NCBI GenBank assembly: GCA_963836235.1
Contig: CAWIIP010000005.1
Coordinates: 69,353-133,352, forward strand
From: an uncultured Pseudomonadota bacterium
Lineage (GTDB): Bacteria; Oederibacteriota; Muellerivitia; Muellerivitales; Muellerivitaceae
Length of the DNA stretch: 64,000 nt
Direction: 5' to 3'
Made by a program: the position numbers and the translations under genes. The notes beneath the pieces are model-generated. The model saw nothing but the letters and a program-made list of their open reading frames with translations, ran no database searches and was not told where the DNA came from. This document shows positions 11,888 through 29,682 of the stretch, piece after piece; the first letter of the stretch is position 1; each line of letters begins with the position of its first letter.

Positions 11888-12104
11888 GCATTTTCCAATT
11901 TTAAGCGTTATTGAAATACTCGATGGGTATTTTAAACTGGGATAAGTTTATCATAACTACTTTAGGATCCAGGCAAAATTTCAAAACCGCTTTCTCAAAA
12001 ACTCACCCGGTATTTTGAAAGTTTTCTCTATCCCGCGCCCATGGAAAAGAAGGCTCTATCAATTAACCGTGACTTCCTCCTTTTTTACTTTACTAAAAGT
12101 CATT

Positions 12105-12767: not shown

Positions 12768-14813
12768 TCATTTCGAAGTTTGGCTTTCAAAAGGAATTAG
12801 CTTTTGATGGATAAGTTCATGGGCAAATATGGTCCCCAGCAAAGTATGCCCATTATGGTTGAAATGATAAATACCGCCGTGCTCTGCGGTGGGATAGGAG
12901 CTCGCTTTCAAAACGGACATTTGATCCGTCAGATCCATGAACGAAAGACCACTTCTCGCGCAAACGTCTTTCCAGAAAAGACGGTAAGGTTCGTTAGGAT
13001 ATTCCGAATCACCAATATTTCCAATTGGAAGAAACCAAAGTCCAAACATCATTGGTTTCCCATCCTTCGTTTTCATCTTTTCAATCTTTTTTCCTAATAA
13101 AACCGATGGTTTGCCGACCAATTGAATCAAATCCTCCCGAACATCCCCATCTCCCAACATCTGGTCCATTGGGACAAAGGTTTCAAGATTGCCGGCCTTA
13201 CCGAAATGATTTTCGATACACCGATGGTAAAAATCCTTTAAGACAGGGCTTTCTTCCGCTCGCTGGTCCAACGGTTTCAAAAAAAATTCCGTGTCCACGT
13301 TTTCACCCGGAATCCCATCCTTCGTTAAAGGGCTAAAAAAATACGGTTTGTACTGATCCTCCGTGGAAGGCGTCATCACCAAAAGACAAAGATCGATGTC
13401 GTAGGTCTGGAGAACAGGTGGAACTTCATAATAGGGCCACAAACCTAGAAAAAAGGTTCCGTCACGCCCTAAGCTCAATACCTGGAAGTGAACCGGAACA
13501 TCCTCCAGGGCTCCCCAAGTGTTCAACATCTGCTCAAGCCGTTTGGGAAATGTTTCCATTCGGTTGTAACCCCAATCCCATCTTTTTTTATATTCATCAC
13601 TATTGGTATGAACAGTATGGGAATCCCCGACGATAAGGATCCGAAAAGTATTAGGGGGTTTTGCGGCGGGAAAATCAAAATCCGTAATGCCTCCCGCCGT
13701 TCTTCGATCCCATACAAAATCGGTGTCCTTGTACTTGTCAAAACGGTAATCCCGAAGACTGAAAATCACATTGCGGTTGGACATTGAAACAAAAAACCGC
13801 TTAGGATCCGCCGGATCGGCGACAAAACCTGGCAAGTAAGGTATGTAGTTCATCAAAACCGAGAGGTCGGGTTCACCTTTGTCTTGAATAAAGTCTCCCC
13901 AGACCGACATCATTTTAAGCGGACCGGCTTCGTTGGCGGGGGCGATTTGTACCCAATCGTTACCCTGACCCCAAGGCAATCCGTACAAAACGTCACCGGA
14001 AGAGGCTATAGCAGATATTGGGGTCACGCTTTTACCGACCATCGAAATTGCGACTTGGGCGGTTAGGGTTCCAGCGCCGGGTTCCAATTCATATACCGCA
14101 TTCGATACTCCGTCACCGACACAAACATGATTTCCGTAAACACATATTCCCCAAGGATGCGTCATTTCCAACCGGCCTTGGACAACGTTTGAAAACAACT
14201 GTTTTTCCATATCTAGTTTCGAAACTATTCCTTCACCGCTCCGGGTAAAATAAATAGAATTTTCCTCGGGAAAAAAAATCATGTCGCCCACGTCTGCGAT
14301 GGTATCTAACACACTGCCATCAGAAGTCTTAGGATGAAGCGTTGACACCATTTGCGTGTTCAAATTGACAAGGCGGAGACGGCCCTGATCGTAAACTACC
14401 AACTGGTTCGTTGGCAAGAAGACTAAAAGACTAGGTTTGTTAAAAGTAGTTTTTGGAAAAGAACCATCTTTGTTGCCCCTTATGGATGAACCCGCAAGCG
14501 TTTGGACTTCATTATTCTTGTCCAATCCGACAACCCGAATTCGGTGATTTTCAGCATCAGCTACAAAAAGTCGGGTTCCCTTTGCGTCAACCGCGAGGCC
14601 TTGTGGCGTGTCGAATAAAGCCGAAATAAACGAGCCGTCACGGAACCCCCTTGCCCCCTGTCCGGCAACAAGATCGTTATACTCCACCATGGGCGTTATT
14701 CCCCACAGTTTCGGGGAAAGTATTAGAAATAAAAAAATTATTTTTTTCAAAGTCCGCCTTATTGTGCAGGATTTCCGAAATGACCTTTCATCGACGCGAA
14801 ATACGTTTACCAA
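12768..14813 (-). CDS. Secreted/anchored NHL beta-propeller fused to SGNH/GDSL-type hydrolase domain
   Basis: N-terminal hydrophobic signal/anchor, then NHL blades (LAVDAKGTRLFVADAENHRIRVV). The C-terminal ~300 aa carry the SGNH block-I motif RILIVGDSHTVHTN. The true start may be an internal TTG/ATG near 14750. Confidence 0.65.
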   Translation of the reverse strand: MVNVFRVDERSFRKSCTIRRTLKKIIFLFLILSPKLWGITPMVEYNDLVAGQGARGFRDGSFISALFDTPQGLAVDAKGTRLFVADAENHRIRVVGLDKNNEVQTLAGSSIRGNKDGSFPKTTFNKPSLLVFLPTNQLVVYDQGRLRLVNLNTQMVSTLHPKTSDGSVLDTIADVGDMIFFPEENSIYFTRSGEGIVSKLDMEKQLFSNVVQGRLEMTHPWGICVYGNHVCVGDGVSNAVYELEPGAGTLTAQVAISMVGKSVTPISAIASSGDVLYGLPWGQGNDWVQIAPANEAGPLKMMSVWGDFIQDKGEPDLSVLMNYIPYLPGFVADPADPKRFFVSMSNRNVIFSLRDYRFDKYKDTDFVWDRRTAGGITDFDFPAAKPPNTFRILIVGDSHTVHTNSDEYKKRWDWGYNRMETFPKRLEQMLNTWGALEDVPVHFQVLSLGRDGTFFLGLWPYYEVPPVLQTYDIDLCLLVMTPSTEDQYKPYFFSPLTKDGIPGENVDTEFFLKPLDQRAEESPVLKDFYHRCIENHFGKAGNLETFVPMDQMLGDGDVREDLIQLVGKPSVLLGKKIEKMKTKDGKPMMFGLWFLPIGNIGDSEYPNEPYRLFWKDVCARSGLSFMDLTDQMSVLKASSYPTAEHGGIYHFNHNGHTLLGTIFAHELIHQKLIPFESQTSK

Positions 14814-15265
14814 TTACAACACACCCTTCCTGCCCTACCACTCTATGCTACCTGATCGTGTTTATGACCATTCGACATATCAGGAAGTCGATGCTCACTA
14901 GTTTGGTATCGTCATATTTTTAAGAAGCCAGGAAATCGAAGATCAATTGACGGCTAAATTCTTTCGTCTTTCATTGCGCATTCCCCTGAATTCAATCAGC
15001 CAGAAGGCGGTTTCCAATCAACTCTTTCAAACAACACTTTTTCCAACTCATAATGGTTGTCAACCCGTCATAAGTAGGATTTACCCTCATTAAGCTTCAT
15101 TTTAAAAACCCATCAAAAACCTCTGAAGATTCCTTTCGCCAGTTTATCCGTTGTTTTTTCTCCGGTAGTCTCCAAAGTGAAAGATGTCGCAACCATCATG
15201 CGAAAGATGTTCTATTTACTTTAAATAAATTTCATCTGAAAAACCCGAAATCGAAGCCTCTTAAC

Positions 15266-18200
15266 TCAAGGAACTTCACCAAAAACCGAGGTCGGCATGA
15301 CCTCTCGTTTACCGTCGGGCTTGACCCAATAAAGGTTAAAGTTTGAAAGGTTGGACCCGGTCCTCCAACCATAGATATCTATGGAATGCTTACCGGCCAT
15401 CAGATAGATTTCTTGGTTTTGTCCATTCGCCATTTCTGGAGTTTTATTATCAATCTTCAGTTCCTTTTGGCTGTCCGTTTGGATAAAAAACTGGTAATGC
15501 CCCGACTCCGCCACGTTGAACTTCCCGATCCAATGGACGGCGCTGGCAGGCACGGTGAAATCATTACCATTAGTATAATTTAAAATCGGGTCATATTCGG
15601 ACAAGTAGGGTGTTTCGCTCCAATTCGGCCCACGAAGATAGTCTCCCTTAAGCCCTCTGAAGGGTGGCAAGCTATCAAATGCGCCCGCGTCCAACAAAGT
15701 CGGAACTCCCTTCTCACTCACTTGTTGTATCTGGAGGTTGGGCTTAACTCCTTCCGGCACGTCCATTTTGACTTTCACCGGATAATAGCCCTTAATCAAG
15801 GACTCGAAACGGGAAGAAGAACGGGTCTTCCCTACTTTCAAAACGACCGGAAAATCCGCCTTAATCACCCATTGGTAATTCCCAGGTACATCCACGTAAA
15901 GATGCCCGGTTAAGGTCACGTGATAAGGTCCAGCCGGAAGACCCGATGGGAATTGGGCGATTTGCTGATCCGTTTTCCCGCCAACTTCTCGATCAAAATG
16001 AGCCGTCAGGCCCCGAACCTTAGCAACTTCTTCAGCTGGGACTTTATAGAAATACTCCACCGTGTTTCCCGCAGGATCCACCATGTACTCATCATGACCA
16101 CCCGGGTAAAAATATTGAAGCATAGGAATGAATCCCGTCTTCCCTTCTTCCATGGCAAAGTAGAGGCCCCGGGAAGTATCGGCACTATGAGAAATGAGGG
16201 AATTCGGCATTAACAATGGAAAGGTTTGCTTTTGATAAAAATAGCCTAAAAAATCAATGGTGTAATAATTGTAGTAGTCGGGCGAGACATAGTAATTATA
16301 GGCATCGCCGTTTTTTTGAATGATACGGCCTACCATTGTTTGCTGGGGGGCATATTCATGCCACCCGCCGAAGCTTTTGGCCTGTTTATTGAAATAAACA
16401 TCGAAATTCTGGGCGGCCATCAGCCACAGGAAGGGAGCCAAGAAAACAAGGAACATCCATTCATTTTTTTCTCCGCCAAAGCTTTTTATTCTTCCCCAAA
16501 AGGCAGATATCGGCGCGGCCACAAAAAAAGCGATGAAAGGCGTCAAGGCGAATAAACGATTGGCATGGGCGGCATCGATGGAAAGAACGCAAGGCAGGCT
16601 CATCACCAGGAAACCTACCACAACATAAAAATACTTCCGGCGGAACACGCGAAAAATGGAATAGGCAATTCCCAAAACAAAAAGGGCGCCTGAAATATCG
16701 TCCAGCATGCGATAATCCTGAAGATTATGGCGGGCATTGGGATCCCCCAGTCGGTTAAACATAATGGCGGTGCGCCCGACCACTTGCAGAAATTGTTTGA
16801 GGCCATGAACCATCAAGTCGTGCTCCCGAGTCTGGGGGTTCCAAATGACGGGAAGACAAAGAACTATGGATAATCCCGCGAATAATGCGATTTCTTTCCA
16901 AAGAATCCTGACTATCTTGAAATTAACAAAAACCTCATACAAACCATAAATAAGTATAAGTAGGGGAAAAACTTTATAAGCCTGGTAAGTGTATGCCCCT
17001 GCCACAAAAAAACCGGCCGCGATAAGGGTCGCCACAAGCGGCTCCCGATTTTTCGAGGTTTTAACTAAAAAGGTCAGAAAAGAAAGAACGGCTAGAGTTA
17101 AAACCCCCGATAAGATAGCCAGTGGTAAACGCATTTGTAATAACATCGAATAAAAAGAAAAAAAGGCGAAAGGGAAAACACCTAAGACAAAGAATGCGCA
17201 AGATCCAATGGTCATTGCGTAAAATAGCTGTTTCTTAGAAGACTTACTCCCATGAATGGCATAAATCAAAAAAGCAATGGTCCCAAACATATAAAGGGAC
17301 ATCTGAACGGTAGGAAACCCGTTCCGGCTGAAATTAATATTCCAACGCATGACAGCTAGGATGAAAAGAGAAAGCAAAGCTATGCGAATTCCCGCCAACT
17401 GCCGAAAAGTCCAATAAATAAGAGGAAAACCAAGAAGTCCTAAAAAGGCGTAAAAAAGCTTTAGGCTTACTTCGTTAGAACCAAACAGCTTAAACCAAAG
17501 AGCCAACTGGAAAAGGGCTAAAGAATAAGCGTGAAATACATCTTCCACATAAAAAGGATGCCAGCCTTCATGCAGAATCCGAAGAGCCGCAAGCCCCTCA
17601 AAACCCTGGTCAATAAATAATCCCGATGGGACAGAGGCAATTTGGTAAGCCCGCATGAAAATGGCCACAACCATGACAAAAACCAAAAAAAACATTTCCC
17701 ACTTAAAATCCAGGGATACCTTCTTCAACTGCTCACGGTACCAAGGCCAAAAGCTGGTTATAAATAAAATAACCGCCGCCAGGAAAAACCATGCTCCCTT
17801 AGGAAAAGTGGAGGCCTCCGCCGATTGGGCCCAATAATTCTGGCCAATCCCGGCCAGGACGAGCGAAACCACCGCCCCAAACCCTCGCAAAACAGCTAAA
17901 GGTTGGATAGTTTTAATGGGGAAGGATGAAAAGGATATCTTTGAAGGCCGTATTTTTATTTCCCTTCTCCTCTTTTGAGGGCGAATGAATGAATATCTCT
18001 TTTTTCGGAATAAGAAAATAATTTCTTCTTCAAAATACGTTGCCAATCCCAAACAAACCGCCAACAAGGAGATGGTTAAACCCCAACCGGATCGACCTTT
18101 AAAAATAAAAACTTGTCCAAGAACCAACAGACCTAAGGCGATAAAATATATAAAATTTATGACATTTTTATTTTTTTGAAGGGGCATTGCTCTATTTGAA

Positions 18201-18286
18201 AAAGCTGTCGGTAAGTTCTTCTTTGCCGCCAGCTTTCCTTTATGCTTTTTGGATGGCAAGCTCGGCTCCTCTTGACCAAAGTTCAA
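15266..18286 (-). CDS. PMT/ArnT-like GT-C membrane glycosyltransferase (GT39/GT83-like) with two C-terminal PA14-like domains
   Basis: About 13 TM helices. The first periplasmic loop is RAYQIASVPSGLFIDQGFEGLAALRILHEGWHPFYVEDVFHAYSLALFQL, typical of PMT_2/ArnT enzymes. The C-terminal soluble region has two PA14-like segments (GHLYVDVPGNYQWVIKADFPVVLKVG and GKFNVAESGHYQFFIQTDSQKELKIDNK). Confidence 0.7.
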   Translation of the reverse strand: MNFGQEEPSLPSKKHKGKLAAKKNLPTAFSNRAMPLQKNKNVINFIYFIALGLLVLGQVFIFKGRSGWGLTISLLAVCLGLATYFEEEIIFLFRKKRYSFIRPQKRRREIKIRPSKISFSSFPIKTIQPLAVLRGFGAVVSLVLAGIGQNYWAQSAEASTFPKGAWFFLAAVILFITSFWPWYREQLKKVSLDFKWEMFFLVFVMVVAIFMRAYQIASVPSGLFIDQGFEGLAALRILHEGWHPFYVEDVFHAYSLALFQLALWFKLFGSNEVSLKLFYAFLGLLGFPLIYWTFRQLAGIRIALLSLFILAVMRWNINFSRNGFPTVQMSLYMFGTIAFLIYAIHGSKSSKKQLFYAMTIGSCAFFVLGVFPFAFFSFYSMLLQMRLPLAILSGVLTLAVLSFLTFLVKTSKNREPLVATLIAAGFFVAGAYTYQAYKVFPLLILIYGLYEVFVNFKIVRILWKEIALFAGLSIVLCLPVIWNPQTREHDLMVHGLKQFLQVVGRTAIMFNRLGDPNARHNLQDYRMLDDISGALFVLGIAYSIFRVFRRKYFYVVVGFLVMSLPCVLSIDAAHANRLFALTPFIAFFVAAPISAFWGRIKSFGGEKNEWMFLVFLAPFLWLMAAQNFDVYFNKQAKSFGGWHEYAPQQTMVGRIIQKNGDAYNYYVSPDYYNYYTIDFLGYFYQKQTFPLLMPNSLISHSADTSRGLYFAMEEGKTGFIPMLQYFYPGGHDEYMVDPAGNTVEYFYKVPAEEVAKVRGLTAHFDREVGGKTDQQIAQFPSGLPAGPYHVTLTGHLYVDVPGNYQWVIKADFPVVLKVGKTRSSSRFESLIKGYYPVKVKMDVPEGVKPNLQIQQVSEKGVPTLLDAGAFDSLPPFRGLKGDYLRGPNWSETPYLSEYDPILNYTNGNDFTVPASAVHWIGKFNVAESGHYQFFIQTDSQKELKIDNKTPEMANGQNQEIYLMAGKHSIDIYGWRTGSNLSNFNLYWVKPDGKREVMPTSVFGEVP

Positions 18287-18718
18287 TCACGGTTTCTCAA
18301 ACAGGCTAGATTTTATTACCTTAACCAGCCTTAAAGAAGGATGAAATGTGATTTCAGCTGGTAAAACAAGTAAAAACCCTCAACTTTTTTAAAAAAATAT
18401 TTTCTTTTTCATCGGTTTTAAAAAATATACTCTTAAGCATAAAAGCTCTCTTCGTTTTATTCCAACTTACTCCCATGAAGCTTTAAAACCGAATAAGCAT
18501 CTATTTAAACAAGATGCCGGGCCAAAACCCCGGGAAGCCTTCCCTGACCGAAGAAATCATATTGAATATAGTTTGACTTCCGGCTTACAAAAAAATTTTA
18601 AAATCATTAAGAAGACCGCCCGTTAAAAAAACTAGTAACACGGTTAAAATGATCAACTTAATCATGATCATTTTTTGCGACTTTTTAAAAAATTTTAAAA
18701 ATTTTTTTCCAAATGTTA

Positions 18719-21070
18719 TTAAAGCTTTATCTTCTTGCCGCGGTTGGATCGTTTTGGGGAAAGAATTTCTTCTTTTGCCAATTCAACAGTTCTTGGACTC
18801 GTTTGTAAAGGCATGGAGAATGGCCAAATCCCTCCCAAAGAATCCCGGACCCACACTCCAAGACTCTGCCGCTTCAACCAGCCGATCAATAATACGACCC
18901 AGATAAAAAGTGAATACCAAAAGGTATAAACAATTATTCCCGGGTGATAGGACATTTTTACCGTATGATGACCTGGATTTTTAAGCTCCACAACACGGAA
19001 AGCTGAGTCGGCCTGATAAACAGTCTCTTCTTTTCCATCCACTGTGGCCCTCCAACCGGGATAGTAAGTGTCCGATAAAAATAGGAAACAAGGCCGGTTG
19101 TTAGTACAGTCCATCTCCAGGTCGTTGAAATCGTACTGGGTGATTTTCGCCGCTCCAACCCATCCCTGTGGCCAGGAAGGTTTTCCCTCCGGCTCGGCGG
19201 TCAAAATAACTTCTTGGTGCGCGTCCACCTTTGCATCGCGGATGTCGTAAACCGTTTGATCCGTATCGGGATCGACCTCATACCCCCCCACCATGAAGGC
19301 CCGGGGAAAGGCCTTCGTGTCCGTCATGTAACCCGCATTTCCAAGCAAGGGTTGCCATCGATCACTGACTTTCCACTCGGGTCGCTGAAAGCGGTAGGTC
19401 AACCGAATAAGATCAGGTAAAGGCGTTTCATTGTAACGCCATTGTTCCGCAAGATATTTATGGGAAGTCTGGATAAGTACGGGATACCCCGTCATAGCCG
19501 CAGAAATTCGGTGTAAAATTTCATAGTCCTCAATTCCTTCGGGTTGTACTCGCGGATAGCTATCGTCGAGCTGGATTTTTGCTAACAATGAAGGGTCCAT
19601 TATCGTTGCCGGGCTTAAAATAGAATAAGAATTGTCAACGACAAGATGCTTTTCGTCGAATCGCCAAAGATCTGTAATTGTTCCGATTAAAAGAAATCCG
19701 GGTGTCAAAAACAAAAGGAGGGCCCGAGATATCTGCCCAAGTTTCTGACCGCGCCAATACCTAAACCAAGCATCCAATCCCAGCCCCGCCAAACTCGATA
19801 GGGCAAAAGCGGTCACCACCATAATCCGCCCTATGCTTCGATTGTGGCCGAATCCAGGAAGATACTTGAAAAAAAAGAGGTAGAAGGAATGAGTAAAGGT
19901 GGTGGAGTCTCCCATAGCCAACAGAGTGCTGAAAAGAATAACAAGAAAAAGCCACCAAACAAAAGGTCGTTTCAAGAAAAGCCACAAAAATCCTAAAGAC
20001 GCCAAAAAAAATGGGATTAAACCAATATAGATAATGATCTCGTGATAACCCCAGCGCCCAATGTCACCTCCCGGCATCCCCAGAGCAAAAGGTTGAATGA
20101 GAATGCGTAAATACGAAGGAGAAAAATAATCTTTCATTAAATCGTTCCATTGCCAAACCCATCGATCACTCAATCGCGCAAACTGGTAGGCGGGGGCTAA
20201 TTGACACAAGGAAAGGGAGAAAGAGACAAAAACAAAAACTATCTCCGATAGCAGAAGTTGTTTAAACGTAATTTTTCGCCGCACCCATCCCCATCCAAGC
20301 AATAGTCCGCTAAACATCATGGCATACATGTTCATTTGCGGCATACCTTCCAGGACACAAAAACCCATAGCCACCGCAGCTAACAAAATGTCAGAAAAAA
20401 GGCCACTATTCGTGAACCGTTGGACACCAAAAAAAACGAAGGGAATCCAGCTGGCCGCCAAGACAATGCAAGTATGCCCAGCGAATAAGTGTCCAACAAA
20501 AAATCCAGAAAAAGCGAAGGATAGGCCGCCCAAACAACCCGCCAACCATACGCATCCCAAACCACGAATGAAAAAATAAGTTCCCACCGCGGCTAAAAGA
20601 AAATGGAAATAGTAACTTAAGGTGAAGGCATAAGAGACGGAAAAAATAAAAAATAGAAAATTGAGAGGAGCATAAGGACCAGACTCGGTCATAGCCAAGA
20701 AAGGTTGGCCTAAGGCACTAAAGGGGTCCCAAAATGCAGGATAAAAATTTTTGAGGCTTTGAATCCAAACATATTTGTAAGCATAGAAATAGGAAATATC
20801 CATGCAGCCAGGAACCATGTCCGGATGAGTCAAAGGCTTCCAAAAAACGAAGAGGGCAAAGACAGAAAACAGCAAGAACGCACTGAACGAACCTTTATTG
20901 AAAATTTTGGTCAAGGCTTGCTTTTCCAAGATATTTTCGTTTAATGAAATACTGGATATCCAAGAAAAGAAAGACTCACGCCGTCCGGGCGCTGGAAACG
21001 AAGTTGAAAATGACGGGTCTAAAATAATGCCTTTTGCCGGTACTTTCTGTTTTGGAATTGTTTTTTTCAC
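18719..21070 (-). CDS. YfhO-like GT-C membrane protein (paralog A)
   Basis: 783 aa with about 13 N-terminal TM helices. A large C-terminal extracytoplasmic domain is followed by a terminal TM (IIVYTFWYSLFIWVVLLIGWL). The N-terminal motif DISYFYAYKYVWIQSLKNFYPAFWDPFSALGQPFLA resembles the YfhO family. About 45% identical to the paralog at 32818-35148. Confidence 0.6.
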   Translation of the reverse strand: MKKTIPKQKVPAKGIILDPSFSTSFPAPGRRESFFSWISSISLNENILEKQALTKIFNKGSFSAFLLFSVFALFVFWKPLTHPDMVPGCMDISYFYAYKYVWIQSLKNFYPAFWDPFSALGQPFLAMTESGPYAPLNFLFFIFSVSYAFTLSYYFHFLLAAVGTYFFIRGLGCVWLAGCLGGLSFAFSGFFVGHLFAGHTCIVLAASWIPFVFFGVQRFTNSGLFSDILLAAVAMGFCVLEGMPQMNMYAMMFSGLLLGWGWVRRKITFKQLLLSEIVFVFVSFSLSLCQLAPAYQFARLSDRWVWQWNDLMKDYFSPSYLRILIQPFALGMPGGDIGRWGYHEIIIYIGLIPFFLASLGFLWLFLKRPFVWWLFLVILFSTLLAMGDSTTFTHSFYLFFFKYLPGFGHNRSIGRIMVVTAFALSSLAGLGLDAWFRYWRGQKLGQISRALLLFLTPGFLLIGTITDLWRFDEKHLVVDNSYSILSPATIMDPSLLAKIQLDDSYPRVQPEGIEDYEILHRISAAMTGYPVLIQTSHKYLAEQWRYNETPLPDLIRLTYRFQRPEWKVSDRWQPLLGNAGYMTDTKAFPRAFMVGGYEVDPDTDQTVYDIRDAKVDAHQEVILTAEPEGKPSWPQGWVGAAKITQYDFNDLEMDCTNNRPCFLFLSDTYYPGWRATVDGKEETVYQADSAFRVVELKNPGHHTVKMSYHPGIIVYTFWYSLFIWVVLLIGWLKRQSLGVWVRDSLGGIWPFSMPLQTSPRTVELAKEEILSPKRSNRGKKIKL

Positions 21071-21114
21071 ACGCTACTCCATTCCCTTTGAAAAGAAGGA
21101 ATTAAATAATTCGA

Positions 21115-23607
21115 TTAGGGGTTCTTAGCTGGTGTTACGAAAGAAGAGTTATTGTTCAAGTCTATGGAAAGTTCGTCCAAGGATTTATCCCATCCACCCG
21201 AAATGGAATGCACATGGACCGTTGGAAATTGGTGTTCCTGGATAAAAGCCGTCAAAATCTCAACCGAATGATTTCCTGCCGTGAGGTTTAACTTGGACTT
21301 TCGTGGAAGATTACCCTCGGGACTTTTGGTCACCAGTACTTCTCGCCCATCCACCCATAACTCGCTGGTATTGGCCGTTTGAAAACTGACTTCATATTCA
21401 CCCGGAGTGGTCACTTTCCATTCGCCCGTAATTCGGCCAACGTATCCGCCTTGTAGAAAAGGCGCGGGAACTGGATCGTTCCAACGAGCCTCCCGATCCT
21501 CGAATTGGATCATCCCCCGGCCCAAACCTAATCCCGCGTAAAAGCGCCGGAACCAATCAAAGGCGGGTTTGTACCGGACATAGAAATAATCAGTGGGATT
21601 CTGGGATAATTTTTCAAAGGGCACGATGATCCATTTAAGGGAAGTAATGGGCCAAGCGCTTACCCTTTCATGCCATGTTCCCTCAGGGAATGCCCTGCTT
21701 AATTTATCCTTCGCCGGATCATCTCCCCCCCAAATGACTATCGCCAAGTCTTTTCCCTTTTCCCCTTCCACGAGGTCGATGGGATTAGAGTCGATCGCCA
21801 GATGGGCGTCCCTTCCCTCGCAAACTAAGTCCAGTCCGCTTTCCCCAAAATGCGAAGGATTTGGAACTAGGTAAGCCCTTTTCCCGGCGATGGAAGGGTC
21901 ATCCAAAACATCCTGGGCCAGGGTATCGTTCCAGCGCATGTTCATCCATTTTTCCAAAATTTGGACGTTCGTAACCAATGACCAAACTCCGATAATCAAA
22001 AGTAGGACTGTCCCCCATTTCGCTCCATTCCGAATCGTGGAAAAACGAAAAGCTTGCCATAACCGGTAAGCCCCCCAGGCCGCGATCAGATACATTGGCA
22101 GAAGGGTCGCCATCAGGCGATTGGAATGGGCCCCGTGGGTCACGAAGAAGGCGGCGTATCCCACGAAGAAAAGACCAAGAGTAACGCTCTGAATGAGGCG
22201 GGGCCGCGCCAGGAAGGACGCTAAGGCCGCCAGGCCGAAAGCGGGCACGAAGAAATCCATATAGGAATCGCCCTTCATGGGGGGAATGTTCCAGAATGGA
22301 TTCTGGTCGTCCCAGCTGAATAAAAGCTTGAATCCATTCCAAAAATTCGCGATACAATATTTTGTCGCTTCCCATTTGGTCAACTCGAAGCGCGGATCGA
22401 AAATGACCATCTCATTGGGATGGGCCGAGTACCCAGGCTGCATCCAAAGGGGGCTTAACAACATGGCTGTTAGCAGGGACCCGGTGGCCCACTTCCAAAC
22501 CCAGTCATTTCCCCGGCTATCCAGCCCCACTCGAACATAAAGCGCGCCCAGGCCCGCCAAGATCATCCAGAGTCCCCAACCCGAACCGAAAAATTGCACC
22601 CATCCCCATTCGTGAGGCACAACTCGGTTCACGTAAAAAAAAGCGAAAGCCCAACTCAACATCACGGAGAAAGCCAGTGCCCAAGCCATCCGGTTTTTAG
22701 GCCTTAAGGACGGACTCCAAAGCATCCAAAGCCACAAACCTCCAATCAGGACAGGGGTCCAAAGACGAAAAGCCACATAGAGATAAGACCCCAGGGTCAA
22801 GGCCAACCCCCACGCGATGAAACGGGAAAGCTTTGGATTCTTCAAGAGCCGGAAGAGGAAAAGGACCACTAATGCGCAGGCCAAGACATCGGTGTGGAAG
22901 CCAAAATTAATTTTTGAAATTTGGATAAGGGTCTTGCTGATGGTCCCCATTACCATGAGGAGGATGCCTACCCGCCGCCCGCCCACTTCCTTGCCCAGAA
23001 GGTAAAAAGACCAAAGGATAAGAAGGTCCACCACAACGCAGGATATTCGCATGGCGACAATGGCGGTCGCGTGGGGCATAAGAGACCAAAGGGCAGCCGA
23101 AAAATAAGCAAAAAGCGGTTCTCTCGTACCATAAGGCAGGAGGATAGGCCGGTCTCCGGCCACCATGATTTGGAGCGCCTCATTGGCGTAAATCCAATGG
23201 TCATTGTCAATGCAACCCGATATCCGGTGCAGGTCATATAGCCGAAGGATGGCGCCTAACAAAAGAAGCCCGAAAAAAGCCGGTCGGGAAACAAGAGGAC
23301 CTATGTCACCTTCCGGCCCACTTTCGGGAATTTTCCGAAAGAAATAAACCATCCCGGCAAAACCCAGCAAAAGCAGCGGGTAAAATGGAAGTTTGGAAAA
23401 AAGATCCCAGCCAGGAATGAGGAGTTGGGCATTGGGAAGGGACAAGAGGGCCAGGAACGTCAAACCCCAAGAAGCCAACAAGCCCCAAAAAACAGGAGAC
23501 TTCACTATCACTTCGGAAGTCGAAAGAACGGGGACGGAAGTATTGATTTTTTTTACTCGAACGGACTTACGCTGCGGGACGGATTTGCGTCTTTTGGTGG
23601 ATGCCAT
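21115..23607 (-). CDS. PMT/ArnT-like GT-C glycosyltransferase with C-terminal PA14-like domain (tandem paralog 3)
   Basis: Basic N-terminal tail and 12-13 TM helices. GT39/83-like loop GTREPLFAYFSAALWSL. C-terminal GRGMIQFEDREARWNDP...GEYEVSFQTANTSELWVDGREVLV is a PA14-like fold motif. Confidence 0.7.
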   Translation of the reverse strand: MASTKRRKSVPQRKSVRVKKINTSVPVLSTSEVIVKSPVFWGLLASWGLTFLALLSLPNAQLLIPGWDLFSKLPFYPLLLLGFAGMVYFFRKIPESGPEGDIGPLVSRPAFFGLLLLGAILRLYDLHRISGCIDNDHWIYANEALQIMVAGDRPILLPYGTREPLFAYFSAALWSLMPHATAIVAMRISCVVVDLLILWSFYLLGKEVGGRRVGILLMVMGTISKTLIQISKINFGFHTDVLACALVVLFLFRLLKNPKLSRFIAWGLALTLGSYLYVAFRLWTPVLIGGLWLWMLWSPSLRPKNRMAWALAFSVMLSWAFAFFYVNRVVPHEWGWVQFFGSGWGLWMILAGLGALYVRVGLDSRGNDWVWKWATGSLLTAMLLSPLWMQPGYSAHPNEMVIFDPRFELTKWEATKYCIANFWNGFKLLFSWDDQNPFWNIPPMKGDSYMDFFVPAFGLAALASFLARPRLIQSVTLGLFFVGYAAFFVTHGAHSNRLMATLLPMYLIAAWGAYRLWQAFRFSTIRNGAKWGTVLLLIIGVWSLVTNVQILEKWMNMRWNDTLAQDVLDDPSIAGKRAYLVPNPSHFGESGLDLVCEGRDAHLAIDSNPIDLVEGEKGKDLAIVIWGGDDPAKDKLSRAFPEGTWHERVSAWPITSLKWIIVPFEKLSQNPTDYFYVRYKPAFDWFRRFYAGLGLGRGMIQFEDREARWNDPVPAPFLQGGYVGRITGEWKVTTPGEYEVSFQTANTSELWVDGREVLVTKSPEGNLPRKSKLNLTAGNHSVEILTAFIQEHQFPTVHVHSISGGWDKSLDELSIDLNNNSSFVTPAKNP

Positions 23608-23610
23608 AAG

Positions 23611-26157
23611 TTACCGAGTCCCCAGCACGGGGATGGATCCCTGCGAAGAAGCACCTGCCGCCAGTTCGTCCAAGGGAACTTCTCCTGCCGCTCCAGGAGC
23701 CGTAACCATGATCAGGGGAACTTGATGTTCCGCCGCGAAAGCCGTGACCAGTTCCACGTGATGGAGGCCCGCCGCCAGGGAAACCTCCCGAGTCTTCACC
23801 TGACTTTCATCGGGCTTCATTTCCAATACTTTTTTTCCATCCAGGAAAAATCGGAACACATCCCCGGTGTGTAGCTCCAATTTATATTCCCCGGGCGTTT
23901 GGACATTCCAATCCCCTTCCACCCGCATGGAATTATTCCAATCGATGAATTGGCGGGGGGGTAAGGAATCATTCCACCGGGCCGCACGGTCTTCATAAAG
24001 GATCAAACCACGGCCCAAGCCGTAATAACCATAGCACCTGCGCTTCCAAGTCTGGAGCGAAACCCGCCGGACATGAAAAAAAGCCTTCTCGTCTTGGGGA
24101 ATCCGGTTAAAGGGGATCTCGGTCCACCACATATATGGAATATCGCCTTCCCCTTGCAGATAATAACTCTTCTTTTGCCATTGGATTCCGGGAAACTCTT
24201 GCTCTATCTTTTTTTGGCTTTCCACGTCGCGTCCAGCCACGAAAACGGCCAAATCTTTTCCTTTTTCATCGGGCGTTAGGTCAATGCTATTACTATCGGT
24301 TGTTTGAAACAAATCGGCCCCGTCCGCCAAAACCTCCATGGCGCAAGCGGCATAAAAACCAGGATTGTGCTCCACAATATATACCCGGTGGTCGGGCATT
24401 TCCTTTCGGGCCTGATCCCAAACAATGGTGTTTTGGGCCTCCTGGGCGATCCACTCCCAAACGAGCTTATGATTCTGACCCGCTTCCCATCCCAAGCCCA
24501 AAAGGATCACGCCCACGAAAAGGCCGTTCACCCACTTTCCAGACCTGGTTTGAAGAAGGGCAAGCCAAAGCCTGTTAACACCCCAAGCACCCGTCAAGAG
24601 GAGGGGCAGATCGCAAATCACGTAACGGAAGGAATGAGGCCCGTTAGATAGGATTCCCGCCACCGTGCTGACGAAAAAAAGCGAAACGATAAAAGCGGAA
24701 AGCCACCTTGGTCTGGCGATAAAATAGGCGGCTCCCAATAGAGCGCAAGCGGCTACCATAAATTCGTAAAGCGAATCCCCGATGGCGGGCATGCGAGATA
24801 CGTGATCCACTTGCCCGAACAGAAGTTTGAAGGTGAAAGACGTGTTTCCGATAACCTTCGCCCAGCCTTGCCCCGGTTCGGTAAATTTGGAACTAAAAGC
24901 CGAGATATCCGCCACATGCTCCGAATAATGGGGATGAAGGTAAAAAGGAGCCATAATTAGCGCGGTCAAAAGAGCGCCGGTCGCCCACCCAAAAAGCTTG
25001 CTGAATCCCTTTTCTTTTTCCTCCAAGAAAACTTTCGCGTAACTTCCGGCTAAAGCCAGTGCCGCAAGGATGGCCCCGGGACCGGAAAGAAAGCGGACCC
25101 ACCCGCTGGTTTCGGGCAAGAAAGAGTTTTTATAAATGAAAAGGAACGCCCAAGCGACCAGGAGGCCTGGCCCCAGGACTAACCGATAAGGTCCAAATTT
25201 TCTTTCTTTTGGGTCGCTGAATACCCATAGCCAGGCCCCTCCCAAAAAAACTGGAACCCAAGGCCGGAAAGGCACGTAGGCAAAAGCCCCAAAACCGAGG
25301 GCCGCGCCCCATTCGAGGAAATGGGTCATATCGGGTTTCTTAAGAAGCCGGATGAAAAAGAGGGTCGCCGCCGCGCTGGCTAGGACCGCCGTATCGTTGC
25401 CATACTCAAACTTGGTAACCATAATCATGGTCTTGCAGATGGACCCCATGGCTAAAAGCAACAGACCCATCCTGCGTCCGCCGATTTCCTTGCCCAAAAG
25501 GTAAAAAAGCCAAAGTGCCGTCAGATCGATGATGACTGAGCTCCATAAAACGATGATCAGCCCGGGGGCCTTGGGAAATGGCACCCAAAGCAATGCGCTC
25601 AAATAGGGAAAGAGCGCTTCCCTCCATCCGACGGGAAAGAGGAAATAAAACTTGTGGAAGTCCAGCATGTTACGGATATCGGAATCGATCGTGTAATGAT
25701 CGTCCCAGAAAAACCCGACAGGTTGGTTAGGATTTTCCAATCGGAAGAAAGCCCCGACAGCCATAAAAAACCAGAAACCGGTTCGGGCTGCCCAAACAGG
25801 AATATCCCACTCTCCTTCCTGCACAGGTGGTATCAACCTAAAAAAAACTATCAACGCGATGAAGCCAACCGTAACCAGCAAGCCCCCGGGAAGCCTGGCA
25901 AACAAATTATCCGGAGGAAAAGCTTGGATTTGATTGAGAATAAAAGCGTTCCCCTCGTGGAAAAGCAGATTGTAATTAGGAAAAGCAAAAAGACCCGCCA
26001 TCACCACCAACCATGCGATGAGAAGGTATACGAATTTTTCCAGCCCGAAAGAAGCCGATTCGGGCGCCAAAACCGCCACAGCCCTTGGGGCCTTCGCCTT
26101 AGAGAACGGTTTAATATTCCGGGTAGATTTTTTTCTAGACGTTTTTCGGGTTGGCAT
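23611..26157 (-). CDS. PMT/ArnT-like GT-C glycosyltransferase with C-terminal PA14-like domain (tandem paralog 2)
   Basis: Same architecture as its neighbours (REALFPYLSALLWVPFP loop; C-terminal GLGRGLILYEDRAARWND...GEYKLELHTGDVFRFFLDGKKVLEM). It ends 3 nt before the next paralog starts. Confidence 0.7.
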   Translation of the reverse strand: MPTRKTSRKKSTRNIKPFSKAKAPRAVAVLAPESASFGLEKFVYLLIAWLVVMAGLFAFPNYNLLFHEGNAFILNQIQAFPPDNLFARLPGGLLVTVGFIALIVFFRLIPPVQEGEWDIPVWAARTGFWFFMAVGAFFRLENPNQPVGFFWDDHYTIDSDIRNMLDFHKFYFLFPVGWREALFPYLSALLWVPFPKAPGLIIVLWSSVIIDLTALWLFYLLGKEIGGRRMGLLLLAMGSICKTMIMVTKFEYGNDTAVLASAAATLFFIRLLKKPDMTHFLEWGAALGFGAFAYVPFRPWVPVFLGGAWLWVFSDPKERKFGPYRLVLGPGLLVAWAFLFIYKNSFLPETSGWVRFLSGPGAILAALALAGSYAKVFLEEKEKGFSKLFGWATGALLTALIMAPFYLHPHYSEHVADISAFSSKFTEPGQGWAKVIGNTSFTFKLLFGQVDHVSRMPAIGDSLYEFMVAACALLGAAYFIARPRWLSAFIVSLFFVSTVAGILSNGPHSFRYVICDLPLLLTGAWGVNRLWLALLQTRSGKWVNGLFVGVILLGLGWEAGQNHKLVWEWIAQEAQNTIVWDQARKEMPDHRVYIVEHNPGFYAACAMEVLADGADLFQTTDSNSIDLTPDEKGKDLAVFVAGRDVESQKKIEQEFPGIQWQKKSYYLQGEGDIPYMWWTEIPFNRIPQDEKAFFHVRRVSLQTWKRRCYGYYGLGRGLILYEDRAARWNDSLPPRQFIDWNNSMRVEGDWNVQTPGEYKLELHTGDVFRFFLDGKKVLEMKPDESQVKTREVSLAAGLHHVELVTAFAAEHQVPLIMVTAPGAAGEVPLDELAAGASSQGSIPVLGTR

Positions 26158-26179
26158 TTTTTCTCCCTCGCTTTAAAAC

Positions 26180-28621
26180 TTATTGACCCAGGACTTGGGA
26201 GAAACCAATTCCCGGATTTCTGATGGTGACGTCCTCAAACCAGGCGTTCGATATTAAAAAAGATAAATAATGAATTTGATGAGGGCCTTTTGAAAGAAAA
26301 CGAGTCTGAGAAACTGCGTGAGGCCTTATCCATTCGACCGGAATGGACGAAAGGGCTTTCTTCCCGTCGATCCAAATTTGAACCGGATTGGGACTGTTAA
26401 TGGTAAAGGTATATTTCCCATTCTCCGGTACCATCCATTGGCCGTCCGCTGATACAGAATGAGCCCCCATTCCCCCAGGTAACGGGTTCAATTTGGCGTT
26501 AGAATCTTCATACTGAATCATGCCTCGTCCCAAGCCAAAGTAAGTGACATAAACGCGTCGGAGCCACTTTTTTTCCGGAACCACCCGAAACATGAACAAC
26601 TTTCCTGGCTTTTCGGGTATGTCCCCTGCGGGAATGACCACGTCATACATGGTGGGAGGGTCCGCCTTTGATTGGTAATATTCCCACTTTGGAATCCATT
26701 GGGCCTTAGGAAAATCCTTCTTCAATATAGGGGCCCATTGTTTATCCAGCCCGGCAATAATAACGGATAAATCCTTACGAGGCTCGTTCGCAAGAACATC
26801 AATCACATTGGTGGTCTGTAGCAGGTAAAGAGGCTCGCCATCGTGAATGACCCCCTCCACTGCAGGAGAAGCATACCCCATTCCGTCATAAACCCCCATG
26901 TAAACCCGTTTCGTCGGAAGTTGATCCGATATTTCCTGGGAAACCAGGATGTCGGGCCGCATCATGTTCCACCACTTATCGTAAACCCTGGTGAAAGTGC
27001 TCTTCCCTTCCCACGCCCAAAAGACCGTCAGGCCCAGGATTAGAAGAATGCCCATCCAGCGCCGAACGCCCTTTCCGGCCATGAACCCAGAAACCCACTC
27101 TTCCAGTCCCCAGCAGGAAAGCAGCATCATGGCGGGAAAAGCCCCCAGAATTTTCGCGCTGGTGGGATCAACCGTCATAAGTCTGCCGGCCACGCCCACA
27201 AAACAACAAAGGACTAAAAACAACCTGGTCCAAGAAAAGCGGGAGACCGCGAAAACCAGTCCCACGAAGGCCAATACGGCCGCTTGGTAATCAAAAAAGG
27301 GATCGCCTTCCACGTTCATGTCCGAACGGTCATCACCGGTGACAAAAAGGGTCCGGACGCAGATGGACAACTGGGAGATCATGGCGCGTAAGGGGATACG
27401 TTCATCGTGGATTTTAATCGTGATTTCCGGGTCCATCGCCAGCGGATAAACCAAGAAGCCGGCCAAAAGAACGCCCAACCCCCAACTCACCCACAACCGT
27501 TCCTTGCCCTGGGCGGTCCGATAGAAATATCCCATGGCGGTAAAGAGCAAGACTTGGATCACCATCCAAACGGTGAGGTTCCAGCTCCAAAATTTGGAAA
27601 TGGGATTGCTTGGAAAAACGAAGAACAGCCTGTCCAGGAGGAAAAGAAAAAGCCCGGAAAAGGCCGGGATAAGGAAAATAGCCAGGGGCCAGCGGATGGA
27701 TCGGGCCCTCTCCTTCCAAAAAATCCAGGCGAAAGTGACGAAAGCCAGGAAAAGCATCCAAGGCCGATAGGCGATGTAACTATAGAAGCCAAAACCCAAG
27801 AGGAACCCCCATTGAAGAAAATGGGACAAGTCGGGCTTGCGGAATAGGCGGAATTGGAACCAAAGGATAAGGGTAATGATGAAGGGAAGGGTCAAGCCCG
27901 GCATCCCCCCGAGGTTCTGCATGATCATGGGCTTGCTGAAGGTGCCCAGAGCCGCCAGGAAAAGTCCCGTCATCCTTTTCCCCGTTATTTCCCGGCCTAA
28001 CCGGTAAAAGAGCCAGCCCGCCCCGACGTCAAATAGTGTTGAGGTGATTCTTTGCACCAAGAGACCTTTCATGGTCGGGAAAAGCGACCACAAACCCGCC
28101 GCTGCGTATGGGTAGAGGGGTTCCCGGTGGCCGATGGCGAAGGTCATTCGGAATACGTGGAGCTCAAAAATATTGCAGGGATCGATAATGCAAATGGCGG
28201 GATCGTCCCAATAACGTCCCATGGGTTGGTCGCCCCGGTAAAGCCTCATATAAGCGGTCAAGGCCAAGAGACCCAAGAGAGCCGGGTAGGCAATCAATCG
28301 GGGTACATCCAAAGAAGTGGGTTGGGAAGGAAGTCCTCGAAAACCCAAAAATAAAATAAAGGCCGCCAGCCACAGGAGAAAGTTTAAGTGATTGACCGGT
28401 AGCGGGAAAGGAACCCCCAACCACCGAAAGGCATCGAACTGCAGGAAAACCGCCCCCACCAGCAGGAAACCCAGTAAAAGAAGAAAAAAAGTTTCAGGCG
28501 CGACGCGGGTCGGTGGCGCGGCAAGTGTAGAAACGGCGGAAGGGTGGGCCGTCCCCCCTTCCTTTTTCAAAGGAAAGGTCTTCCGGCGGACGACTCTCCG
28601 TTTTCGGTTAGGCTTGGCCAA
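26180..28621 (-). CDS. PMT/ArnT-like GT-C glycosyltransferase with C-terminal PA14-like domain (tandem paralog 1)
   Basis: Same architecture (REPLYPYAAAGLWSLFP loop; C-terminal GLGRGMIQYEDSNAKLNP...GKYTFTINSPNPVQIWIDGKKAL). It starts 38 nt downstream of the NHL gene on the same strand. Confidence 0.7.
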   Translation of the reverse strand: MAKPNRKRRVVRRKTFPLKKEGGTAHPSAVSTLAAPPTRVAPETFFLLLLGFLLVGAVFLQFDAFRWLGVPFPLPVNHLNFLLWLAAFILFLGFRGLPSQPTSLDVPRLIAYPALLGLLALTAYMRLYRGDQPMGRYWDDPAICIIDPCNIFELHVFRMTFAIGHREPLYPYAAAGLWSLFPTMKGLLVQRITSTLFDVGAGWLFYRLGREITGKRMTGLFLAALGTFSKPMIMQNLGGMPGLTLPFIITLILWFQFRLFRKPDLSHFLQWGFLLGFGFYSYIAYRPWMLFLAFVTFAWIFWKERARSIRWPLAIFLIPAFSGLFLFLLDRLFFVFPSNPISKFWSWNLTVWMVIQVLLFTAMGYFYRTAQGKERLWVSWGLGVLLAGFLVYPLAMDPEITIKIHDERIPLRAMISQLSICVRTLFVTGDDRSDMNVEGDPFFDYQAAVLAFVGLVFAVSRFSWTRLFLVLCCFVGVAGRLMTVDPTSAKILGAFPAMMLLSCWGLEEWVSGFMAGKGVRRWMGILLILGLTVFWAWEGKSTFTRVYDKWWNMMRPDILVSQEISDQLPTKRVYMGVYDGMGYASPAVEGVIHDGEPLYLLQTTNVIDVLANEPRKDLSVIIAGLDKQWAPILKKDFPKAQWIPKWEYYQSKADPPTMYDVVIPAGDIPEKPGKLFMFRVVPEKKWLRRVYVTYFGLGRGMIQYEDSNAKLNPLPGGMGAHSVSADGQWMVPENGKYTFTINSPNPVQIWIDGKKALSSIPVEWIRPHAVSQTRFLSKGPHQIHYLSFLISNAWFEDVTIRNPGIGFSQVLGQ

Positions 28622-28659
28622 GTTAAAGAACCGCCCTCTGTGTCATGTTATCCGTTTAA

Positions 28660-29682
28660 TCAGGGAGTCGTTGGCGGCAATTGGTACAAGCCGACATGAT
28701 CGCCGCCGGCTATCATTAAAACATCGTCCGGGCTAACGGCCAAACCCCGGTCTCCCTGGATCAACACTCCTTTTTCATCCGTGAGGTCTCCCAGATAGCC
28801 GGTTTTAATACTATAGGCTTTCACGCAGCTGTTTCCGTTGGTGGCCGTGGAAACGAAGAATCTACCGTCTTTGTCCACCGCAACGGCAGCGACGCCGGCC
28901 TTGTACTTGAAAACCTTGAGTACTTTTCCGTCCTGGTCAAGCCATTGAAGACGCTCGTTTTCCGAATCGGCGACGAAATAATTCCCCTTCCCGTCCGAAG
29001 CCACGTCCAAAGGACTTTTGAATTGACCTTCGTCGGTGCCAAATCTTCCCCAAGAAGCGGCAACATGGCGATCAGGGGCGATCAAAAGAATTCTGTGGCT
29101 TCCCGTGTCGGCCAACAGGAAATTCTTCCCGTCGTAACCGATTCCCCGGGGGCCGTAAAGGTTTTTATCCCCTAAGTCGAGGTTTAATATTTGTTTTCCA
29201 TTTTCGTCATAACCCTTGATGGTACTGTTCCATGTATCGATTACATAACCGAACCCCTTATCGTCGGAAACCATTCCAGAGGGTTCATGAAAGCCCACAG
29301 AACCGCCTCCAGGCTTCCCCCAACTTTTTAAGAGGTTGCCCTTCCGGTCGAAAACCAAGACGCGGTTGTTTCCCTGGTCGACCACCATGACCTTGTCCTT
29401 CCCAACCGGCCCCACGCCCCAGGCGTTAAAGGGACCGCACTTGCTGTTTACACCCGAAAAGGTGCTGAGGGTCTGGACTTTGTAATCCTTAGGGACTTCC
29501 CCGTGGAAAAGGTTCATGCTTTCCACCAAGCAACCGATCAAGACCAGGGCTATCAATATCCGGATAACCGCCTTGCTTGAGCCAGACGCCGGGGGCGACA
29601 CCAGGGGTGGCGCTACGGGGGTTGTATACGCCGTCCCCCCCAAGTTCTTTTTTTTCGCGCTAGTTTTTTTCCGTGGCGGCAT
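28660..29682 (-). CDS. Membrane-anchored NHL-repeat beta-propeller protein (paralog 2)
   Basis: Lys-rich tail MPPRKKTSAKKKNL, a Pro/Ser-rich linker, one TM helix, then NHL blades. About 75% identical to the 37619-38641 product across the propeller. It is the first gene of the NHL/GT-C/GT-C/GT-C/YfhO gene string. Confidence 0.7.
   Translation of the reverse strand: MPPRKKTSAKKKNLGGTAYTTPVAPPLVSPPASGSSKAVIRILIALVLIGCLVESMNLFHGEVPKDYKVQTLSTFSGVNSKCGPFNAWGVGPVGKDKVMVVDQGNNRVLVFDRKGNLLKSWGKPGGGSVGFHEPSGMVSDDKGFGYVIDTWNSTIKGYDENGKQILNLDLGDKNLYGPRGIGYDGKNFLLADTGSHRILLIAPDRHVAASWGRFGTDEGQFKSPLDVASDGKGNYFVADSENERLQWLDQDGKVLKVFKYKAGVAAVAVDKDGRFFVSTATNGNSCVKAYSIKTGYLGDLTDEKGVLIQGDRGLAVSPDDVLMIAGGDHVGLYQLPPTTP

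Follow-up and report, generated by a model that had tools for sequence, protein, structure and literature searches.

Do PA14 domains that are fused to a membrane-embedded sugar transferase act as lectins, or do they serve the enzyme in another way? The question is raised by a 64,000-nt stretch of DNA (hereafter, the window) from an uncultured soil or peat bacterium of the candidate phylum FCPU426, as the lineage is named here. The block examined, positions 15266-28621, consists of five large minus-strand open reading frames (ORFs), G1 to G5. Four of them (G1, G3, G4 and G5) encode the proteins that a first-pass annotation, made from the sequence without database searches, had described as PMT/ArnT-like GT-C enzymes with lectin-like PA14 domains at their C-termini, whereas G2 encodes an additional membrane transferase. 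We find that the C-terminal domains do belong to the PA14 family, that the Asp pair which holds calcium and sugar in PA14 lectins is replaced in all five of them, and that they probably are accessory modules which position the acceptor or product of the transferases. The block is organized as follows:

15266..18286 (-), G1, 1006-aa GT-C protein with four extra N-terminal transmembrane (TM) helices, a 13-TM core, an alpha/beta domain and two PA14 domains (ORF; PMT_2, 26.7 bits; PA14, 27.7 bits; AlphaFold2 model; Foldseek)
16397..18169 (-), membrane domain of G1, aa 40-630 (model helices, topology)
16016..16396 (-), predicted extracytoplasmic alpha/beta domain of G1, aa ~631-757 (DSSP of the model)
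15662..16015 (-), first, divergent PA14 domain of G1, aa ~758-875 (profile comparisons, model alignment)
15269..15661 (-), second (terminal) PA14 domain of G1, aa 876-1006 (Pfam PF07691, structure match)
18719..21070 (-), G2, YfhO-type membrane glycosyltransferase, 783 aa (Pfam YfhO, 36 bits)
21115..23607 (-), G3, 830-aa GT-C protein with a single C-terminal PA14 domain (ORF; Pfam PA14, 22.1/24.5 bits)
21118..21567 (-), PA14 domain of G3, aa 681-830 (Pfam match at aa 709-779; member of profile A5)
23611..26157 (-), G4, 848-aa GT-C protein with two extra TM helices, a 13-TM core, an alpha/beta domain and a PA14 domain
23614..24060 (-), PA14 domain of G4, aa 700-848, holding the segment WxRRxYxxYGLGRGxIxYEDRxxxWND (aa 700-735)
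26180..28621 (-), G5, 813-aa GT-C protein with a single C-terminal PA14 domain (ORF; Pfam PA14, 25.2/26.1 bits)
26183..26578 (-), PA14 domain of G5, aa 682-813 (Pfam match at aa 718-757; member of profile A5)

To judge from their sequences, G3, G4 and G5 are paralogues, with G4, G5 and G1 being 36%, 28% and 17% identical to G3, respectively. Homology between the families of G1 and of G3-G5 extends over 625 columns (hhalign 99.8%, E=5.5e-28). No PA14 domain was recognized in G2 by Pfam at E<=0.1.

The C-terminal domains are PA14 domains

Taken protein by protein, comparison with the Pfam PA14 model (PF07691; model length 147, gathering score 24 bits) provides marginal evidence. The strongest match, at aa 880-998 of G1, scored 27.7 bits (E=2.7e-6) and covered model positions 6-144/147 (27.2-27.7 bits and positions 4-144 across runs). 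G5 scored 25.2 bits as a whole protein and 26.1 bits with the C-terminus alone, in a match that spans ~40 residues, and G3 scored 22.1 and 24.5 bits, respectively, whereas G4, with 12.5 bits (E=0.13), remained below the gathering score, and the first of the two C-terminal domains of G1 (aa ~758-875) had no Pfam match.

At the level of families, by contrast, the evidence is decisive. A profile built from the last ~150 residues of 26 relatives of G3, G4 and G5 (profile A5) matched the solved PA14 dyads 6qe7, from RsgI3 (E=1.7e-10), and 6qdi (E=1.8e-10), as well as the PA14 domain of GH31 enzymes (E=1.7e-6) and the anthrax protective antigen (E ~1e-3). In a library of 1.84 billion representative proteins, the same profile matched 4377 proteins, and many of the top-ranked ones are large multi-repeat proteins with 5-14 matched stretches. 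The profile of the G1 family matched RsgI3 in two stretches (E=7.6e-28) and the anthrax protective antigen with the full domain covered (E=2e-11). When the profile of the first domain of G1 was compared with that of the second, the two aligned over 110 columns (hhalign 98.6%, E=1.4e-15), and the first-domain profile also found RsgI3 (E=0.0019) and the anthrax protective antigen (E=0.0025) in the PDB, albeit weakly. Thus, homology to solved PA14 domains is detectable for G3-G5, for the G1 family and for the first domain of G1.

The AlphaFold models of G1 (mean predicted local distance difference test score, pLDDT, 88.6; predicted template modelling score, pTM, 0.85; built on 56 homologues) and G4 (pLDDT 88.7, pTM 0.89; 47 homologues) point in the same direction. 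The modelled C-terminal domains adopt the PA14 beta-sandwich and match known PA14 domains at 2.7-2.9 Å, with sugar-bound PA14 lectins, namely, MpPA14 (2.9 Å), Flo5, Cea1A and Epa, among the fold matches. In the Foldseek search with the G1 model, the tandem dyad 6qe7 ranked first, with both modules aligned over 292 columns (E=7e-10); the second domain of G1 also aligns to domain 1 of the anthrax protective antigen at ~3 Å over 140 columns. Judged from sequence profiles and the model, G1 carries two PA14 domains.

The profile and structure searches of the C-termini, which the first-pass annotation had itself proposed as a check, therefore bear out its assignment of PA14 to the ends of all four proteins and of two such domains to the 1006-aa protein, and the motifs on which it drew (GEYEVSFQT..ELWVDG, GEYKLELHTGDVFRFFLDGKKV and GKYTFTINSPNPVQIWIDGKKAL) are all present as described. 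Its estimate of a ~150-aa soluble C-terminus was correct in that the proteins end in PA14 but too short for the soluble region as a whole, which comprises an alpha/beta domain followed by PA14 and measures ~280 aa in G3-G5 and ~375 aa in G1. The PA14 domain of G3-G5 was considered as the positional counterpart of the first PA14 domain of G1, as in the collinear hhalign alignment of the two families, but this correspondence was rejected because the G3-G5 profile resembles that of the second domain (E=5.8e-15) more than that of the first (2.5e-8).

The calcium-dependent sugar site is missing

All experimentally proven PA14 lectins that we compared, namely those of the RsgI and Epa/Flo groups (PMC6852018) and B4GALNT3 (D189/D190/N252; PMC13018970), hold Ca2+ and the sugar by means of two adjacent strand-5 residues, Asp-cis-Asp or Asp-cis-Asn, and an Asn in the loop CBL2. 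The second module of RsgI3 (PA14-B) has N-G at the position of the pair, does not bind calcium and, on its own, does not bind pectin (PMC6852018). We placed the Asp pair on the window proteins through the alignment of profile A5 with 6qe7, with an offset of 17 between the chain index and the numbering of the paper. The TDDG of RsgI3 falls opposite T-A-N in G3, T-G-D in G4 and S-P-N in G5, so that the dipeptide equivalent to Asp-cis-Asp reads AN, GD and PN, respectively; it is DS in the second and AD in the first domain of G1. The first Asp is found in 0/47 relatives of G3-G5, which have A, G or P at this position, and is poorly conserved in the G1 family, where the position is variable (DE in 10, ND in 6 and DS in 5 members, others in the rest). 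Because the pair is replaced in all five domains of the window, the canonical calcium/sugar site is absent, and the domains, as far as their sequences tell, lack the motif of calcium-dependent PA14 lectins. The lectin-like carbohydrate binding that had been suggested for these domains is thus not supported in that form.

The domains are, nonetheless, under constraint. The most conserved stretch of the entire G3-G5 family lies at the start of the PA14 domain, at aa 700-735 of G4 (WxRRxYxxYGLGRGxIxYEDRxxxWND), where mean identity is 63% and 10/36 columns are conserved at >=90%, which is above both catalytic loops. This conservation suggests a role particular to the family, perhaps where the PA14 domain meets the catalytic domain. 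If the PA14 domains bind the acceptor or product, as we suggest by analogy, they would have to do so through a surface other than the one that includes the Asp-cis-Asp pair.

Divergent GT-C enzymes with PA14 domains predicted to lie outside

Foldseek searches with G1 retrieved ArnT, AglB, STT3, PglB and Pmt4, and those with the G4 model retrieved GT-C structures including EmbB, EmbC and AftD. The models display the multi-helix GT-C fold, including a pair of juxtamembrane helices within the first outer loop. The sequences are far less informative. Against a threshold of 26.1 bits, PMT_2 (PF13231) matched G1 with 26.7 bits and G4 with 20.2 bits, i.e. below it, and did not match G3 and G5; none of the proteins G1-G5 has an NCBIfam match; Pfam finds neither PF02366 nor MIR in the four GT-C proteins; and the family profiles A3 and A4 retrieved from the PDB, at E<=0.01, neither ArnT (GT83) nor any other solved GT-C enzyme. 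Given the missing matches to solved GT-C enzymes and NCBIfam and the borderline PMT_2 scores, we regard G1 and G3-G5 as divergent GT-C enzymes. The label 'PMT/ArnT-like' is right as to the fold, which Foldseek shows to be shared with ArnT and the PMTs, but the proteins cannot be filed in either GT39 or GT83.

Where the first outer loop begins, right after the preceding helix, both families have a conserved acidic motif. In the G3-G5 family, D153 of the FWDDHY motif is invariant (47/47 relatives). The corresponding motif of G1 is FIDQGFEG (aa 224-231), in which D226 is nearly invariant among 56 relatives and G228/G231 are conserved. The conservation suggests a catalytic role for D153 and D226.

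The topology was built by hand from the DSSP helices of the AlphaFold models and hydropathy. It comprises 15 membrane helices in G4 and 17 in G1, that is, a 13-helix core plus 2 (G3-G5) or 4 (G1) extra N-terminal helices. In both G1 and G4, eight helices lie between the first outer loop and a large late loop, and four follow the latter, a layout which we take to match that of the 13-helix ArnT and PglB, whose C-terminal domains are periplasmic. Lysine and arginine account for 22/81 residues of the predicted inner loops and 11/180 of the outer loops in G4, and for 35/127 and 14/143, respectively, in G1, which amounts to 27-28% inside versus 6-10% outside, a strong positive-inside bias. A lysine/arginine-rich N-terminus inside, combined with the odd numbers of helices, would place the catalytic loop and the C-terminal module outside. 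The PA14 domains are thus predicted to be extracytoplasmic, on the side of the catalytic first loop, in agreement with the first-pass annotation. The alpha/beta domain of G1, a mixture of helices and strands, follows directly after the last TM helix and, according to the fold matches, would be placed like the periplasmic domains of ArnT and PglB.

The N-termini of G1-G5, and also that of the NHL protein encoded at 28660-29682, carry similar lysine/arginine-rich tails ahead of the first membrane helix (MPTRKTSRKKSTR.., MPPRKKTSAKKK.., MASTKRRKSVPQRK..), which may represent the positive-inside signal alone or a shared targeting feature.

Comparison with known systems

An accessory domain on a glycosyltransferase has precedents (EmbC, AftD, the MIR domains of PMTs and the PA14 domain of B4GALNT3). 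The mycobacterial EmbA/B/C and AftD resemble G1 and G3-G5 in that they are GT-C enzymes with a large C-terminal extracytoplasmic non-catalytic domain, use a polyprenyl-phosphate sugar donor, as inferred for the window proteins, and include several paralogues acting on one envelope polymer, as we propose here. The C-terminal domain of EmbC, described as a lectin-like module, binds the growing glycan (PMC3044687). ArnT (GT83) and PglB/STT3 likewise have the GT-C fold, with 13 helices and a periplasmic domain at the C-terminus; G1 and G3-G5 differ from them by 2-4 extra N-terminal helices and the added PA14 domain or domains, and their family profiles gave no sequence-level match to these enzymes at E<=0.01. 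A motif of the WWDYG type was not seen in the window proteins, in which no search aimed at it was made. In the eukaryotic and actinobacterial PMTs (GT39), the lectin-like MIR beta-trefoil, whose fold is unrelated to PA14, resides in loop 5 rather than at the C-terminus, and neither MIR nor PF02366 is recognizable in the window proteins. The MIR domains are a precedent for an accessory domain on a glycosyltransferase.

Other systems share the PA14 domain but not the GT-C fold. In the animal Golgi enzymes B4GALNT3 and B4GALNT4, as in the window proteins, PA14 is fused to a glycosyltransferase, whose activity towards glycoproteins depends on it (PMC13018970, PMC11254600); however, these are soluble-domain enzymes that use a nucleotide sugar donor. 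The PA14 domain of B4GALNT3, a proven lectin that is needed for activity, keeps the D189-D190/N252 triad (PMC13018970), which the window proteins lack. The RsgI3/RsgI4 dyads (6qe7, 6qdi), the best match of the G1 tandem in both sequence and structure, are extracytoplasmic, membrane-tethered tandem PA14 domains, like those of G1, but belong to polysaccharide-sensing anti-sigma factors, not to enzymes, and bind pectin or xylan through calcium held by an Asp-cis-Asp/Asn pair (PMC6852018) that is absent from the window proteins. The GH3 beta-glucosidase KmBglI and GH31 alpha-xylosidases, like the window proteins, carry PA14 on a carbohydrate-active catalytic domain, the structure match to GH31 PA14 being at 3.5-3.7 Å with 14-21% identity. 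However, these are hydrolases with PA14 inserted within the catalytic domain, whereas the window proteins are transferases with PA14 appended C-terminally. The PA14 inserts of GH3 and GH31 enzymes shape the substrate pocket rather than act as free lectins.

Proposed role and alternatives

We consider it probable, though far from certain, that G1, G3, G4 and G5 transfer sugars from polyprenyl phosphate as part of a conserved envelope-glycan cluster and that their PA14 domains are accessory modules for positioning the acceptor or product. A nearby ArnC/DPMS-like GT2 enzyme would make the polyprenyl-phosphate-sugar carrier, from which each GT-C enzyme would take a single sugar and, on the external side of the membrane, add it to an envelope glycan or glycoconjugate that is being extended, with the paralogues G1, G3, G4 and G5 making different linkages. 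The PA14 domains would be non-catalytic and would keep the acceptor or the emerging product in place beside the active site, in the manner of the C-terminal carbohydrate-binding domain of EmbC or of the PA14 inserts that shape the active sites of GH3 and GH31 enzymes. Because the Asp-cis-Asp site is missing, this mode of binding would differ from that of the classic calcium-dependent PA14 lectins, and the best candidate for the binding surface may be the WxRRxY..GLGRGxIxYEDRxxxWND segment at the start of the domain.

Several observations weigh against the positioning role. The first Asp of the lectin motif is missing from all 47 relatives of G3-G5, and the RsgI3 module without the Asp pair binds neither calcium nor, alone, pectin (PMC6852018). 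The membrane domains have no sequence-level match to any solved GT-C enzyme, so that the type of donor is read from the fold and the gene neighbourhood alone. The topology was derived by hand from hydropathy and DSSP, and the G1 model draws residues 575-635 as a single continuous helix although two passes are required. A scan of the window for a small multi-helix GtrA-like flippase gene found none near the cluster.

Of the alternatives, the least credible is that weak motif matches have produced a spurious PA14 call and that the C-termini form some other beta-sandwich; the Pfam scores of G3 and G4 at or below the threshold and the 40-residue match of G5 speak for it, but the family profiles and models described above leave it hardly any room. 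The version of the first-pass annotation, in which classic PA14 lectins read the acceptor or product sugar through the usual PA14 sugar pocket, draws on the fold matches to sugar-bound lectins, on the lectin of B4GALNT3, which likewise operates within a glycosyltransferase, and on those G1-family relatives that retain D-E or N-D at the motif position. We nevertheless regard it as improbable, the pair being replaced in all five window domains, with its first Asp lost throughout the G3-G5 relatives, and loss of the pair in RsgI3 PA14-B abolishing both calcium and pectin binding (PMC6852018).

Two further readings, both unlikely, involve the NHL beta-propeller proteins, the genes for which stand beside G1-type GT-C/PA14 genes in many FCPU426 loci. 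On one of these readings, the main rival of the positioning role but itself rather unlikely, the enzymes would be protein glycosyltransferases (PMT/TMTC/TMEM260-like) and the PA14 domains would dock NHL propellers as substrates or complex subunits. On the other, which has a similarly small chance of being correct, the PA14 domains would not be lectins but built-in components of an extracytoplasmic glycosylation machine, so far undescribed, that is specific to FCPU426 and some Chloroflexota. The GT-C paralogues, the YfhO enzymes and the membrane-anchored NHL propellers would form a complex in which the calcium-free PA14 domain, via its conserved WxRRxY..GLGRGxIxYEDRxxxWND segment, would be part of the acceptor site or of the propeller interface. 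Such a machine would be novel both in how PA14 functions and in the accessory architecture of its GT-C enzymes.

Bacterial envelopes and glycoproteins are built by GT-C enzymes, whose choice of acceptors is understood in little more than a few model systems. If the PA14 domains position the acceptor or product, as we favour, an external PA14 domain on several paralogues of one conserved cluster would provide a handle on acceptor recognition in an uncultured phylum and would make a second example, next to B4GALNT3, of a glycosyltransferase in which PA14 is at work. A rule that equates PA14 with a lectin would mis-annotate these proteins because the expected sugar-binding site is missing. The practical value of the observation is modest, the architecture having already been flagged automatically and the expected sugar site being absent.

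Distribution and database status

Close relatives of the window proteins come almost exclusively from metagenome-assembled genomes of the candidate division FCPU426 that originate in soil, peat or bog and encode several paralogues each. More distant full-length relatives were found in Dehalococcoidia, Anaerolineae and a locus (L050) labelled Thermoflexus hugenholtzii JAD2, a cultured organism, the last with 24% identity through to residue 1000. Most of 100 G1 relatives carry precomputed PF07691 and PF13231 assignments, under source names such as 'PA14 domain-containing protein', 'glycosyltransferase family 39 protein' and, in one case, 'Dolichyl-phosphate-mannose-protein mannosyltransferase/PA14 domain'. 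The G3-G5 subfamily is small (15 and 46 matches among 5.8 billion proteins), and its members are mostly 'hypothetical protein' or nameless, few bearing a PA14 flag. The GT-C/PA14 fusion is thus already visible in databases through automatic annotation, which removes part of the novelty implied by the first-pass annotation; no publication on the fusion was found, in a literature coverage that is incomplete and hence is no proof of absence.

Gene neighbourhood

To judge from its predicted genes, the window is a large envelope-glycosylation island. Apart from four methyltransferases, the features of interest outside the G1-G5 block are as follows:

7124..7828 (+), GT2 polyprenyl-phosphate sugar synthase, the probable maker of the lipid-linked donor (PDB matches)
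8029-9033 (+), NHL beta-propeller gene
9197-10321 (+), GT9, heptosyltransferase-like
10213-11085 (+), GT2
12768..14813 (-), NHL-repeat propeller protein, 681 aa, directly downstream of G1 (Pfam NHL)
28660..29682 (-), membrane-anchored NHL propeller protein, 340 aa, directly upstream of G5 (Pfam NHL, 62.6 bits)
30180-32414 (-), 744-aa protein in which a multi-helix membrane domain (weak MFS match) is fused to a spermidine-synthase-like domain
32818-35148 (-), second YfhO-type paralogue (Pfam)
37619-38641 (+), NHL beta-propeller gene
38745-39353 (-), 202-aa GH125-like ORF
39425-40639 (-), 404-aa ORF
40712-42805 (-), TMEM260-like (protein O-mannosyltransferase-like) GT-C enzyme with C-terminal TPR repeats, another accessory domain

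The four GT-C genes belong to a gene cluster that is maintained across FCPU426. The order G5-G4-G3-YfhO-G1 is conserved in loci L001 and L011, including the position of G2 between G3 and G1, and, in part, in L002 and L005. In >15 loci, G1-type genes have genes for GT9, GT2, methyltransferases and NHL propellers next to them. The best PDB matches of the GT2 enzyme encoded at 7124-7828 are ArnC (E=1.4e-16), an archaeal dolichol-P-mannose synthase (2e-16) and the GT2 glycosyltransferase sll0501 (2e-10), which is of the GtrB type. Genes of this GT2 type are co-located with G1-type genes in L001, L014 and L016. The matches point to a synthase of polyprenyl-phosphate sugars, from which the donor could come.

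The window encodes four NHL beta-propeller proteins. Homologues of the 681-aa protein adjoin G1-type genes in L002 and L003, whereas the type represented by the 340-aa protein, which has a visible N-terminal membrane anchor, occupies an identical position beside G5 in L005, L006 and L010. In two distant relatives, P0100 and P0105, NHL follows PA14 within one polypeptide (PMT_2 - PA14 - NHL), a fusion which argues that the propeller acts in concert with the transferase/PA14 unit outside the membrane. The C-terminal half of the 681-aa protein has no Pfam match and contains RILIVGDSHT, which resembles block I of SGNH/GDSL hydrolases or acyl-esterases.

The two YfhO paralogues (18719-21070 and 32818-35148) are very divergent members, with Pfam matching just the last ~75 residues. 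Homologues of the 744-aa fusion protein are found near GT-C genes in L003, L025 and L028. The match of the 202-aa ORF to the GH125 alpha-mannosidase model is confined to the C-terminal half of the latter (positions 227-407/414); the ORF may be truncated or a pseudogene, or its start may be wrongly assigned. Pfam has no match for the 404-aa ORF next to it. The GT9 gene and the GT2 gene at 10213-11085, both of which accompany G1-type genes in many loci, overlap by 109 nt as listed, and the true start of the latter therefore probably lies further downstream.

No convincing ORFs were recognized in the two ~430-450-bp gaps flanking G1, and an Rfam search of the window returned no matches. In the public gene call for G1 (P0016), the protein is 973 aa long and starts at the internal Met34, a later start codon, whereas the longest ORF yields 1006 aa from a TTG, with the N-terminal extension at 18188-18286. 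The longer form may be real because orthologues of 998-1001 aa cover 99% of it. The G+C content is 0.42-0.45 over the genes for G1, G2 and the 681-aa NHL protein (~12000-22000) as opposed to 0.50-0.53 over G3-G5 and beyond (~22000-34000), a step which suggests that the two GT-C families may differ in history.

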